Positions 21,082-44,960 of a stretch of DNA of 64,000 nucleotides are shown here, piece after piece. A program made the position numbers and the translations under genes. Numbering within the stretch: the stretch's first letter is position 1; every line of letters begins with the position of its first letter. The notes below the pieces were generated by a model, which saw only the letters and a list, made by a program, of their open reading frames with translations, was not told the origin of the DNA and ran no database searches. Source of the DNA: Dictyostelium discoideum. Taxonomy: Eukaryota. Where the stretch lies: positions 4,256,001 to 4,320,000 of the forward strand of contig CM000150.2 of assembly GCA_000004695.1 (NCBI GenBank), given 5' to 3'.

Positions 21082-21826
21082 TATTTACATCATTTTACAA
21101 ATTGAAGTTTTAGTTTGTTTTACTCTTGTATTTATTTTTTTAATTATTTTACTTGTATTAACTAATGGTTTTTTAGAGTCACTATCTTTTGATGGTTTAT
21201 GACTTTGTGGATCTTCTTTTCTTTTAACTATACGAACTGTTTCATTGAAAACTTCTTCAACATTTGTTCTATTTTTAGCGGAAACTTCCATGAATGACAT
21301 ACCTAAACATCGTGCTAAATCTTTACCTTCTTGAAATGTAACTTGTCTTTCATCATCTAAATCAATTTTATTACCAATCATCATTATTGGTACATCATCA
21401 CTATCCAATACACGAATGATTTGTTCTCTAAAGAATTGAATTTGGTCAAATGATGATCTTGATGTAACCGAATAAACCAATATGAAGCCTTCACATGATC
21501 TAATCCATTGGTCTCTCATAGCGGTTAATTCATCTTGACCTGCTGTATCTAATATATCTAACATATAAACTTGATCATCCACCAAACATTGTTTACGGTA
21601 TGAATCTTCAATTGTTGGATCATAATAATAAACAAAATGATTTGAAATAAATTGAATTGTTACTGCTGTTTTACCAACACCACCTTTTAATATTTTTAAA
21701 TTAAATGAAAAAAAAAAAAATTAATATTAATAAAACTTGGAAATTATTTTTATTTTTTTTTATTTTTTACATACCATCACCCATTATACATAATGATATA
21801 ACATTATTATTTTTATAGGAAGTCAT
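21082..21826 (-). CDS. Ras-family small GTPase (rasU–rasZ type paralog) in two exons, 21826..21775 and 21683..21082 on the minus strand.
   Basis: Sequence is [17 protein letters not shown]|[67 protein letters not shown]...[12 protein letters not shown]...SAK...CKMM. It has the Ras G1–G5 motifs and a CaaX box. The phase-1 intron sits inside the P-loop codon, with a GTATGT donor at 21774 and acceptor at 21685-21684. Confidence 0.85.
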
Positions 21827-22114
21827 TTTTTTATTTATTTATTTATTTATTTTTATTTAGTTTAATAATAATTAATTGATTGAATAATTTTAAAATTCTA
21901 ATTTTATTATAATTGAATTTTCTTTTTTTCTTTTTTTAATTTTATGGAAATAATAATAAATATAATTATTTTTTTTTTATTTTTTATTATTTTTTTTTAA
22001 TTAAAATAATAATAATAATTATTATTATTCTTATTTTATTAAAAATTCTCTTTTACTCTATTTTATTCTCTTTTTCTATTTATAAATAATTTGAATTACT
22101 ATTTATTTGTTTGC

Positions 22115-22146
<32 letters not shown>

Positions 22147-22283
22147 TATAATATTTAAAAGGGATAGGTAATTAATTCTATTTAAATAATTTTACAAATT
22201 GTATTTAAATAGGAATAATTTTTAAAAAATTAATTTTTTTTATTTTATTGTAATTTTTTTTAAAAATTAATTCCGGTTTGTTA

Positions 22284-22333
<50 letters not shown>

Positions 22334-22658
22334 TTTTTATTATTGTAATTTTTGTCGTTACAAAAATATTGGGGGGTGGGTGTGATAATAAGATTAAAAT
22401 TAAAAAATCTTTTTTTATTTTTTATTTTTAATTTTTTGTTTTAAATTATATTTTTGTTTTAATTTTTATTATTTTTTTTTTTGTTGATGATTTTATTAAA
22501 TATCTTATCTATTTTTGTTATCTTTTTATTTGTACTTTTTATTGCAAATTTTAAAATAAAAAAAAACAAAACATAAAAAAATAAAATAAAAATAAAAAAA
22601 AAAAAAAAAATAAAAAAAAAATTAAAATGAATAAAAAATAAAGCTTTATATAATAGAA

Positions 22659-22701
<43 letters not shown>

Positions 22702-22835
22702 ATGATCACTTAATTCAGAGAATCAATTTTTTTTTTTTTTTTTCTATTTTTTTTTATTTTTTTAATTTTAAAATTTGGGCAAAATTATGTGAGACTCTCA
22801 ATTAGTTAATAAAAATTTATGATAAATTTTGATAG

Positions 22836-22872
<37 letters not shown>

Positions 22873-23031
22873 ATGTAAAATATTAATAAAAGAGAGGTGA
22901 GCAGTGCTATTATAAATAAACTTTTTTTTCCCCCACTAATTTTTTTTTTATTTTTTAGTCAACTTTTTTTCAGTTATCCAAAACAAACAATGGGGCGAAG
23001 TCATATAGTATTAAAAATAAAATAAAATAAA

Positions 23032-23070
<39 letters not shown>

Positions 23071-23827
23071 GTTCAATCAGTAATTAAATATAATCAAAAT
23101 CTCAAAACACACACTTCCAACTGACGCTGATCAAAAAAAAAAAAATAAAAATAAAAAAATAAAAAAAAAAAAAAAATATAATATTTTTATAGTTGTGGTG
23201 AAAATATTATTAGCCTCCAATCAAAAATCTTTATTAGGAATTCTAGATCACCACACTTTACTTTTTTTTTTTTAATTACTAAGCCGCAAGGTACCTTTTG
23301 TTTATATTTTTATAGTAATGAAATTTTTTAAAAAAAAATAAATATTTGGTTCTTTTTTTTTTTTTTTTTTTTTTTAATGATTTTTATTTTTATTTTTTTT
23401 TTTTTTTTTAATCACTTTTTATTTTTATTACTTTTTTTTTTTTAAAAATTAAATTAATATATTACCGAAAAGGTTTACTTAAAAAATTTACTAAAAATAC
23501 GGAGTTTTAAGTAAGTTCCTTTTTATTTCCAAAATAAAATGATATTATTATTATAATATTTTAATTTACCGATAAAAGATATTTTTTTTTTTTTGATTTT
23601 TATTTTTTTTTTTAATTAATAAATTGATTTTTTTTAGAAAGTTGGAAAAAAAAAATTGGAAAATATCTATAGATATTATTTTTATATACAAAAAATTAAA
23701 ATTCATTCAATTTGAATGAAAAATTATAATTTATAATTTTATTTTATTTATTTACAATATAATATTACATTTATAATTATTATTATTATTATAATCATTA
23801 TTATTATTATTTTTATTATTTTTATTA

Positions 23828-42097: not shown

Positions 42098-42263
42098 TTC
42101 ATATTTCAGATCCTTGAAAATGAATAAAAATTTTATTACCGCAAATAAAATAAACTTTTTGATTAATGTTTTTTATAAAATAAAATAAAATTAAAAAAAA
42201 AAAGAAAAAAATGATATTGAAAATAAAAAAAAAAAATAATTTACAAAATCACTTTCAACTATG

Positions 42264-42274
42264 GGAATCGAACC
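42264..42274 (-). promoter_or_regulatory. External B box (ex-B, GGTTCGATTCC) about 40 bp downstream of tRNA-Val.
   Basis: A second B-box consensus lies just 3' of the tRNA on the minus strand, as described for many Dictyostelium tRNA genes. Confidence 0.6.
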
Positions 42275-42313
42275 GACGATTCTAATCATATGATTTTTAA
42301 AATCGATAGTTTG

Positions 42314-42387
42314 TATTCAGAGCGGGAATCGAACCCACGACCTAATCCGTGTTAAGGATTCGTGATAACCGACTACACCATCCGAAC
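42314..42387 (-). tRNA. tRNA-Val with anticodon AAC, 74 nt.
   Basis: The minus-strand sequence is GTTCGGATGGTGTAGTCGGTTATCACGAATCCTTAACACGGATTAGGTCGTGGGTTCGATTCCCGCTCTGAATA. The cloverleaf has a 7-bp acceptor stem with two G-U pairs, a D arm GTGT/TCAC, an anticodon stem AATCC/GGATT, a loop TTAACAC (anticodon AAC), a T arm GTGGG-TTCGATT-CCCGC and discriminator A. Confidence 0.85.
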
Positions 42388-42884
42388 AAATCGTTGAAAT
42401 TCAAAAAAAATAGCTTTTCCAATATTTTAATATTTTTTCCCCATAAATAATAATTCTAATAATAATAAAATAAAAAAAATAAATATAATTCAAAAAAAAA
42501 ACCATATTTTAATATTGCTTTCTTACAAAGAAATTTTGAATCATAAAATTATTTATATTTAAAATAATTATAAATTAAAATTAATTTTAATCAACCCACT
42601 TTTATTAATATAATTTATAATTAAAATAAAAAATTATCATACAAAAAACTCTTAAATTTAATATTTTAAGTGTGATACTAAGGTGACATAAAATAATGAA
42701 AGGTTAAATAATTTAATTAATTTTAAATTAATTTTTCAAATCAAAATAATCTCAATTTATATTGATATTATGATAATATTTTCTGAAAACATTATTAACA
42801 TGATTTTCAAAAAAAAAATTTTTAATCTATTTTTAAAAAGATATATAAATTTCCAAAAAAAATTTTTTTTTAAAACAATTCATG

Positions 42885-42919
<35 letters not shown>

Positions 42920-43010
42920 TTTCAAAATAAAAAATAGTTTGGTTATTTATTTTATTTTCTTAAAATTAATTAATAAAAAAACAAAAATAATAAAATATAA
43001 TTTAAGTAAA

Positions 43011-43651
43011 ATGTCAGCCTTTATATATAATAACAGTAATAATAATAATTCGATGCGTCTTTGTGTTATGGGTGATGGTGGTGTTGGTAAAACATCGATT
43101 ACAATCCAATTTATTTCAAACCATTTTGTAAATTGTTATGATCCAACAATTGAAGATTTATATAGAAAACAATGCCTAATTGATGATCAAGTTTATATGT
43201 TAGATATACTTGATACAGCCGGTCAAGATGAATTAAATGCAATTAGAAACCATTGGATAAAATCATGTGAAGGTTTCATATTAGTTTATTCGGTTACATC
43301 AAGATCATCATTTGACCAAATTCAATCATTTTTAGATCAAATTAAATTTTTAAAAAGTGAAAAAGTTCCAATTATAATGATTGCCAATAAATCAGATTTA
43401 GATGATGAAAGACAAGTAACATATCAAGAAGGTGAAAATTTTGCCAATCGATTTGGTATGTCATTCATGGAAGTTTCTGCTAAATATAAATTAAACATTG
43501 ATGAAGTTTTTAATCAAATAGCCCAACATTGTGTGAAAAGAAGATGTGATCACATATATATTAATAAATCAATAAGGAATAAGAATTCAATATTTAAAAA
43601 ATTTAATCAAAAATTAAATAATACATTTCATTCTATTTGTAAAATGATATA

Positions 43652-43652
<1 letters not shown>
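43011..43652 (+). CDS. Ras-family small GTPase paralog, a single exon of 213 aa and the most divergent member of the cluster.
   Basis: Sequence is [101 protein letters not shown]...[12 protein letters not shown]...CKMI. The ORF track starts upstream at a TTG/poly-F artefact, and the true ATG is at 43011. Confidence 0.8.
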
Positions 43653-43700
<48 letters not shown>

Positions 43701-44315
43701 GTAAATAAAGTTTAATGTTCTTTCAATTTGTTATTGATAGAATTTGTATATATCTTAAAAAATATTATTTCTTTTAAAAAAAAAAAATTAAAATAAAAAC
43801 CATCAAATATTTTTTTTTTTTATAAATTATAAGGAGGGGATATCCTAGATATAAAAACCAAAAATAAAAAAAAAGAGGTGACAATCTCCGCTTAAAATTA
43901 CTTTTCACCACTTTAATTTTTATATCTGGCTAACCTTAATAAATTTTAATTTTTCTTTATAATATAAACCAAAATAAAAAACAAAAAAATAAAAAGATAT
44001 ATTAAAAATAAGATGTTACTTAGTTTCAGAAATATTTTTTTAAAAATTGTTTTCTATTTTTTTATTTGAAATTTAATATTATAATTTATTTTAGCGAAAT
44101 CTATTTAAAGATTTTTTTTTTTTTTTTTTTTTTCAAAAAAAAAAATTCAGAGAAATTTTTTTTTTATTTTTTTTATTTTCTTTGACAAAAAAAAAATATA
44201 TAAAAAGAAAAAAATGATTTTTCCTATCATTCAATTTAAAAATAAACAAATAATTAATATATATAATTTGTAAATAAATATAAATAAATAAATAAATAAA
44301 TATAAAAAATTAAAA

Positions 44316-44960
44316 ATGGCATCATATAAAAATAATAATTTAGTACGTCTTTGTATTATGGGTGATGGTGGTGTCGGTAAAACAGCAGTAACAATTCAAT
44401 TTATTTCAAATCATTTTGTTTATTATTATGATCCAACAATTGAAGATTCATATCGTAAACAATGTGTAATTGATGATCAAGTTTATATGTTAGATATATT
44501 AGATACAGCAGGTCAAGATGAATTAACCGCTATGAGAGATCAATGGATTAGATCATGTGAAGGTTTCGTTTTAGTTTATTCAATTACATCAAGATCGTCA
44601 TTTGATCAAGTTCAATTCTTTAGAGAACAAATTATCCGTGTATTAGATAGAGATGATGTACCAATTATGATGATTGGTAATAAATCAGATTTAGATGATG
44701 AAAGACAAGTAACCTATCAAGAAGGTAAAGATTTAGCACGTTGTTTAGGTATGTCATTCATGGAAGTCTCCGCTAAAAGTAGAGCAAATATTGAAGAAGT
44801 TTTCAATGAAACTGTTCGTTCTGTTAAAAGAAGAGAAGAATCATTATTAAAAAAAGATAAATCAAAAGATGGAAAAGATATTAAAAAGAAAAATTCAATA
44901 ATTAAAAAATTAAATCAAAAAGTAAATAATACTAAAACCTCAATTTGTAAAATGATGTAA
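44316..44960 (+). CDS. Ras-family small GTPase paralog, a single exon of 214 aa.
   Basis: Sequence is [154 protein letters not shown]...CKMM. Confidence 0.9.

Follow-up and report, generated by a model that had tools for sequence, protein, structure and literature searches.

Probable birth and death, ectopic duplication and gene conversion behind the two-site rasU-rasZ locus of Dictyostelium discoideum

Introduction

How does a family of closely similar genes come to occupy two neighboring sites in opposite orientations? The question is raised by a stretch of chromosome 1 of Dictyostelium discoideum AX4 (the window: 64,000 nucleotides (nt) of extremely AT-rich DNA, positions 4,256,001 to 4,320,000 of contig CM000150.2) that carries six complete Ras genes, rasU to rasZ. 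Four of them form a main array on the minus strand beside ints2, the gene for Integrator subunit 2, and the other two, rasU and rasZ, lie on the plus strand at a distal site 14.6 kb away. An earlier reading of the window, made from its sequence only, placed the six genes correctly and explained their layout as a single tandem array later split by an inversion or insertion, or as the outcome of duplicative transposition of a gene pair. Comparison with related species upholds the general idea of duplication plus dispersal but neither of these specific scenarios. We consider instead, with a probability of about 0.7, that this is an ordinary young gene family formed by birth and death, ectopic duplication and gene conversion, and not one array cut in two.

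The genes themselves are already known and named, and the cluster is already annotated. In a protein search the rasZ translation is 100% identical to the AX4 rasZ protein, and the matches to rasW and rasU carry these gene names in their source records. The N-termini of all six agree with the RasU to RasZ cloning primers of PMC11187982, which fixes the names and bears out the attribution to rasU-Z in the sequence-only reading. D. discoideum has eleven Ras genes, rasU-Z among them (PMC8370755), and at the gene level nothing separates the genes of the window from the published ones. Full-text searches, whose coverage does not extend to subscription journals and book chapters, returned no paper on the evolution of the rasU-Z locus.

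The locus in related species

We compared the window with the equivalent regions, in chromosome-scale context, of D. firmibasis, D. citrinum, D. dimigraforme and a divergent isolate, D. cf. discoideum, and with a 13.9-kb contig of D. purpureum. Collinearity of the flanks was assessed by tblastx and blastn, the latter with the dust filter and strict thresholds; a permissive run gave AT-rich low-complexity matches. The block that separates the two Ras sites, from ints2 to the coactosin-like genes, keeps its gene order and orientation in every one of the four relatives, and two tRNA-Val(AAC) genes bracket the distal Ras site in all five genomes (the window and the four relatives). The flanks of these two tRNA genes are 87% identical over ~150 nt in the window (42265-42415 against 45346-45493).

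What occupies the two sites differs from species to species. The ints2-side array is Y X V W in the window, with U Z at the distal site (4+2), and is likewise Y X V W in D. cf. discoideum, where the distal site holds U, a degenerate copy and Z (4+3). D. dimigraforme has Y, an inserted RING gene and X V W beside ints2, with a rasU pseudogene and then Z at the distal site (4+1 plus the pseudogene). U stands alone at the distal site in both D. firmibasis and D. citrinum, in which the main array reads Y Z X V W, followed by an RRM gene and sdhB, and Y Z V W, respectively (5+1 and 4+1). The spacer between Y and Z is 720 nt in D. firmibasis and 729 nt in D. citrinum. In the window, a search at E<=1 detected no remnant of rasZ in the spacer that separates rasY from rasX.

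In D. dimigraforme the distal fragment combines residues specific to rasU (AIRN.WIKSC, HFVN) with several stops and frameshifts, features that mark it as a rasU pseudogene. The middle copy of D. cf. discoideum has DTASQ, a disrupted effector loop (DPTIGEPDYKQ) and a ratio of nonsynonymous to synonymous divergence (dN/dS) of 0.39 against rasZ, and looks like a decaying duplicate. Copy number thus varies among close relatives, and a pseudogene and a degenerate copy occur among them, which is the signature of birth and death.

The ancestral state can be approached through D. purpureum, in which INTS2, on the minus strand, lies head to head with one Ras gene on the plus strand that bears the same P-loop intron as rasW and rasY (both introns split the loop between GDG and GVGKT). 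Since ints2 adjoins the single D. purpureum Ras gene and the intervening block is collinear everywhere, the block has been neither inserted nor inverted. The home position is traceable as far as D. purpureum, the sole other group-4 species examined; adjacency to INTS2 is absent for the single ortholog in T. lacteum and C. fasciculata, the two distant species checked. These two species, A. subglobosum and P. violaceum have one gene each among the matches listed, with the signature GDGGVGKT ... MRDQWIRSC ... CK.M. The RasU-Z type is accordingly a single-copy dictyostelid gene that has expanded only in the D. discoideum species complex.

At the other site, rasU or its pseudogene is present between the tRNA-Val genes in all five genomes, so that the two-site arrangement dates back to the ancestor of the clade; rasU itself is an old dispersed lineage. 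The proposal that a split found in the relatives would be ancestral thus holds for the split as such but not for the membership of the two sites, which changes between species. As rasZ changes its address, orthology across species cannot be read from position alone.

Phylogeny of the family

A neighbor-joining tree of all 30 family members with outgroups, with split-based bootstraps, resolves orthologue groups for U, V and W (100% each) and for X and Y (96% each). Each orthologue group has one gene per species, from which it follows that all six lineages, rasU to rasZ, predate the split of these species. The rasZ-type genes are recognizable by a common N-terminus (MA.YKNN.LVRLC) and tail; a tree built from the gene ends unites the Z genes of D. 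discoideum and D. cf. discoideum and the D. citrinum main-array Z with 91% support. The two genes that now share the distal site of the window are not sisters: rasU belongs to its own 100% orthologue group, and rasZ falls among W, X and Y.

A tree of an ints2 exon gives the species relationships as (D. firmibasis, (D. dimigraforme, (D. citrinum, (D. discoideum, D. cf. discoideum)))). It uses ingroup distances only; the D. purpureum high-scoring segment pair is out of frame, with 2 stops and 78% amino-acid difference. Orthologue dN/dS values lie between 0.04 and 0.27, showing purifying selection on all lineages, weakest for U and V.

Gene conversion within and between the sites

The core and the ends of these genes have different histories. 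Pairwise synonymous divergence (dS) among the D. discoideum W, X, Y and Z genes is 0.19-0.30, against 0.49 for the ints2 exon between D. discoideum and D. firmibasis. The four paralogs are older than the D. firmibasis split and yet have the lower dS, so their silent sites have been homogenized. We examined this with a quartet test of two paralogs in two species, in which the third topology serves as a noise control. Between 11 and 24 sites group the genes by species, compared with 0-3 for the control (binomial p 0.011 to 5e-6). The species-grouping sites are mostly third codon positions and lie almost entirely within codons ~25-156 of rasZ, while the sites that support orthology are at the two ends, either among codons 1-25 or in the C-terminal tail (Fisher p down to 7e-9). 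Trees of the ends correspondingly group the genes by orthologue and trees of the core by species, with core-tree support of 89% for Y/Z/W of D. citrinum, 86% for Y/Z/W of D. firmibasis and 80% for Y and the distal Z of D. dimigraforme.

The last pair joins the two sites. Over three core windows the distal Z of D. dimigraforme differs from the main-array Y at 0/90, 3/90 and 4/90 positions, a near-identity which implies that conversion works across the gap and in spite of the inverted orientation. In W, X, Y and Z the G-domain core is thus repeatedly homogenized by gene conversion within each species, also between sites, whereas the N-terminal ~25 codons and the hypervariable tail at the C-terminus escape conversion and carry the identity of each paralog. 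The rasV quartets provide an internal control and give no signal (3-4 species-grouping sites against 3-7 in the control). The signal for rasU is marginal.

The P-loop intron of rasY occurs only in D. discoideum and D. cf. discoideum, the orthologs in D. citrinum, D. dimigraforme and D. firmibasis being intronless. Its core (ATAATTTCCAAGTTTTATTAATATTA) is near-identical to that of the rasW intron of the same species, which may reflect either an intron kept uniform by conversion with rasW or one regained from rasW. Retention with three independent losses and loss followed by regain through rasW conversion would leave the same pattern. Separately, at the distal site of D. cf. discoideum, where rasU and the degenerate middle copy lie (L009 8750-9430 and 10001-10645), the rasU orthologue has a 13-residue duplication of switch II that resembles a partial conversion tract from its neighbor.

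Globin, histone and major histocompatibility complex (MHC)-linked genes are the textbook tandem families with birth and death and partial concerted evolution. The family described here is like them in its varying copy number and its pseudogenes and degenerate copies, in having paralogs that are silently closer within a species than orthologs are between species, and in combining a converted core with unconverted ends. It differs from them in that conversion joins two inverted sites 15 kb apart and in that one member sits at a different place in sibling species.

Origin of the two-site layout

From these data we envisage the following history. The ancestor would have been one intron-bearing Ras gene head to head with ints2, the state kept in D. 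purpureum. Duplication at the DNA level would have amplified this gene in the common ancestor of the clade that unites D. discoideum, D. citrinum, D. dimigraforme and D. firmibasis, so that the main array grew beside ints2, and rasU would early have been placed ~15 kb away, in the opposite orientation, in the slot between the two tRNA-Val genes. The original place of rasZ would be in the main array, between rasY and rasX, and a copy of it with ~130 nt of its own 5' flank would later have been set beside rasU. On the ints2 tree the simplest reading dates this distal duplication after D. firmibasis had split off; the lineages of D. discoideum and D. dimigraforme would then have lost the main-array Z, and D. 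citrinum the distal one. Turnover by birth and death would have continued throughout, with the core homogenized and the ends kept apart. The flanks of the distal rasZ suit such a sequence of events. It has a ~130 nt Z-type 5' flank that is present in main-array Z genes too, and its 3' flank (+16 to +140, ~125 nt) is common to the distal Z of D. dimigraforme (z=17.9) and not to main-array Z (z about 5).

Several points weigh against this history. All trees are neighbor-joining trees, and dN and dS are Nei-Gojobori estimates with Jukes-Cantor correction from a genome with extreme AT bias. The Z group has a bootstrap of only 36-56% (56% on the gene ends, with 246 informative-end columns), and the Z gene tree tracks the species tree with distal and main-array copies not separated, so that one duplication with three losses, two transfers and conversion between Z copies are indistinguishable in it. 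The species tree is itself drawn from one ints2 exon, which places D. citrinum as sister to D. discoideum at 60% and with D. dimigraforme at 33%. Parallel mutation bias could in principle produce species-specific shared silent changes, although the lack of any signal in rasV argues against such an artifact.

The alternative to be taken most seriously, though we judge it unlikely, is that rasZ reached the distal site twice, in the D. dimigraforme and the D. discoideum lineages, or that the distal Z is ancestral and the main-array Z secondary. The agreement of the Z tree with the species tree, including the 91% grouping of D. discoideum Z with the D. citrinum main-array Z, is what independent moves predict, and a single duplication needs three separate losses. 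Two transfers fit less well with the ~125 nt 3' flank that the distal Z genes of D. discoideum and D. dimigraforme have in common and main-array Z lacks, and with the position of rasU or its pseudogene directly upstream of both distal Z genes in the same order and orientation. The closely alike Y-Z spacers of D. firmibasis and D. citrinum indicate in turn that the main-array Z genes are positionally orthologous, contrary to an ancestral distal Z. A copy of the rasU-rasZ pair as a single unit from the main array, as the sequence-only reading had considered, would explain why the two genes are adjacent and co-oriented and have ~150-190 nt of upstream similarity. We nevertheless regard it as very improbable, because rasU and rasZ belong to separate, non-sister lineages (dS 0.48 between them, against 0.19 between rasZ and rasX) and because in D. 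firmibasis and D. citrinum the distal site holds rasU only, rasZ being a member of the main array. The other scenario put forward earlier, a six-gene tandem array cut by a 15-kb insertion or by an inversion, has the closeness of the two groups (~15 kb) and their opposite orientation to recommend it. It can be given almost no weight: ints2 was already the head-to-head neighbor of the single D. purpureum Ras gene, the order and orientation of the intervening block are constant across the five genomes, an inversion that moved rasU would also have turned ints2 away from rasY, contrary to what is observed, and none of the relatives examined has an unsplit six-gene array.

It is also improbable, in our estimation, that the distal copy arose by retroposition, a spliced ras mRNA having been reverse-transcribed and inserted beside tRNA-Val by a tRNA-gene-targeted retroelement (TRE type). 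This idea draws on the absence of an intron from rasU when the ancestral gene had one, on the tRNA genes that bound the distal site, and on reverse-transcriptase elements or remnants in or beside the bracket in D. cf. discoideum (L009 3413-8219), D. firmibasis (L002 4946-6967) and D. citrinum (L004 13682-14041). Intron absence is not diagnostic, as V, X and Z of the main array, and Y in three species, are intronless too; the ~150 nt upstream region that rasU shares with its paralogs fits a DNA-level copy; and no poly(A) tract or target-site duplication is recognizable in the AT-rich DNA (80-85% A+T). A search of the window for remnants of reverse-transcriptase, RING and CfaA-like genes found none, so that the reverse-transcriptase trace seen in relatives is missing here. 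A composite version, in which rasU is a functional retrogene at a tRNA-Val landing pad and rasZ was added later by conversion between the inverted arrays, appears similarly doubtful. Birth and death with DNA-level ectopic duplication and gene conversion thus remains our preferred account of the locus.

A short motif, AAAA(C/A)AATTCAGAGAA followed by a T-run, lies upstream of rasZ (44139-44184), of rasU (42872-42917) and, in three species, of the rasU orthologs. Whether as a promoter element or as what may be left of a rasU-type flank, it is too short and T-rich to interpret. We considered whether rasZ had overwritten a duplicate of rasU and set this idea aside, the motif being its sole hint and too short and T-rich for such a claim.

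Predicted function of the Ras proteins

The proteins of the window are canonical in most of what defines a Ras GTPase. The Pfam Ras family (PF00071) matches rasZ with 185 bits and rasU with 181 bits, against a cut-off of 21.6 (E=9e-55), and W, V, X and Y are 70-91% identical to rasZ or rasU. The nucleotide-binding motifs G1 GxxxxGK[ST], G3 DxxGQ, G4 NKxD and G5 SAK are intact in all six translations, and five of the six have the effector loop YDPTIEDSY, rasU having YDPTIEDLY. In every one a Lys-rich tail precedes the terminal CAAX box, and the boxes are those listed in the sequence-only reading: rasV ends in CKVM, rasU in CKMI and the other four in CKMM. The family signature which that reading assigned to all six is right for most of them, rasU and rasV departing from it (YRKQIC in rasV).

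Set against classical Ras (human H- and K-Ras, and RasG and RasD of Dictyostelium), the Ras domain and the motifs G1, G3, G4 and G5 are common ground, the effector loop is identical to that of H-Ras, and the CAAX box after a Lys-rich tail recalls K-Ras4B. The window genes differ in their P-loop, GDGGVGKT, with Asp at the position of Ras Ala11 and Thr for Ser17; in switch II, for which the classical form is DTAGQEEYSAMRDQY; in their longer tails; and, in rasV, in an N-terminal extension.

The six products are most likely active, prenylated, membrane-bound Ras switches. Given their uniform core and differing ends, it is probably targeting and expression, and not the choice of effector, that set the paralogs apart. 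PMC6304742, citing Kortholt and van Haastert (2008), gives no obvious phenotype for knock-outs of rasX, rasY and rasZ. An effector-binding core made uniform by conversion, combined with differing membrane-targeting ends, would fit this absence of a phenotype in single knock-outs, which suggests redundancy among the paralogs. As the cluster is annotated and named, known Dictyostelium Ras signaling is unchanged by these results. Their practical use is in planning multi-gene knock-outs and in comparing these genes across species, and they hold no surprise.

Some orthologs in other genomes depart from this pattern. The D. citrinum rasU (L004 10001-10624) carries Ser where classical Ras has Gly12, its P-loop reading GESGVGKT or GDSGVGKT (P0029 and P0035 are also among the rasU orthologs with substitutions), and the rasU orthologue of one D. 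discoideum isolate has GVGGVGKT. A change of Gly12 is activating in classical Ras, and the substitutions in rasU orthologs may point to altered GTPase behavior or to relaxed constraint. The D. citrinum rasV (L003 12364-13035; P0023) has no terminal CAAX in either of the two sequenced strains (...ICKSIKL, ...LLSINAVSQ), which suggests that prenylation has been lost or that pseudogenization is incipient.

Gene structures and surroundings

Gene calls were made by combining the open reading frame (ORF) listing with tblastn over the entire window and with examination of the DNA itself (Table 1). The cluster had been taken to start at 21082; the cluster is real, and that coordinate lies 3 nt before the rasW stop codon, the gene itself spanning 21085-21826. 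Protein identity among the six ranges from 61% (V and U) to 91% (X and Z). Comparison of the window with itself defines a repeated unit of ~0.8-1.1 kb, made up of the coding sequence with ~50-190 nt upstream and 20-250 nt downstream, so that every Ras copy brings its own proximal upstream region. The tblastn search of the whole window found no seventh member or fragment of the family.

Table 1. Positions of the Ras genes and of the features between and beside the two Ras sites, in window coordinates.
Feature	Position	Strand	Structure and remarks
rasW	21085-21826	-	216 amino acids (aa); exons 21775-21826 and 21085-21683; GT..AG intron 21684-21774 (91 nt); CAAX CKMM
rasV	23831-24520	-	229 aa; intronless; Asn-rich N-terminal extension; CAAX CKVM
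rasX	25896-26537	-	213 aa; intronless; CAAX CKMM
rasY	27626-28369	-	216 aa; exons 28315-28369 and 27626-28221; intron 28222-28314 (93 nt); CAAX CKMM; head to head with ints2
ints2	29180-33651	+	Multi-exon; start approximate; Pfam INTS2 E=2.4e-124 on 30919-33651
ORFs without Pfam family	33930-36807	+	Rich in low-complexity sequence; segment 34458-36986 conserved in D. firmibasis
IBR-domain (RBR-type, RNF14-like) E3 ligase gene	37863-39737	+	Extent approximate; Pfam IBR E=6e-15 and IBR_1 on 38493-39737
Two tandem coactosin-like (Cofilin_ADF) genes	40112-40573 and 41045-41503	+	~75% nucleotide identity
tRNA-Val(AAC)	42313-42387	-	Proximal boundary of distal Ras site; conserved in all five genomes
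rasU	43011-43652	+	213 aa; intronless; CAAX CKMI; most divergent member
rasZ	44316-44960	+	214 aa; intronless; CAAX CKMM; in W/X/Y/Z group
Second tRNA-Val(AAC)	45391-45465	-	Distal boundary of distal Ras site; just after rasZ

The content of the interval (INTS2, ORFs without a Pfam family, an IBR ligase, two Cofilin_ADF genes and a tRNA-Val(AAC)) and its length of ~15 kb are as had been read from the sequence, which had missed the second tRNA-Val(AAC) gene. The coactosin-like pair represents a second small tandem duplication within the interval, and D. citrinum has it too.

The only other GTPase match in the window is a multi-exon small GTPase gene at ~13122-14264 on the minus strand, outside the RasU-Z family. 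Its product is 27-32% identical to those of the Ras genes, has a Rab11-like N-terminus and ends in GCC. D. dimigraforme has an orthologue of this Rab-like gene in the corresponding place (L007 17628-18688).

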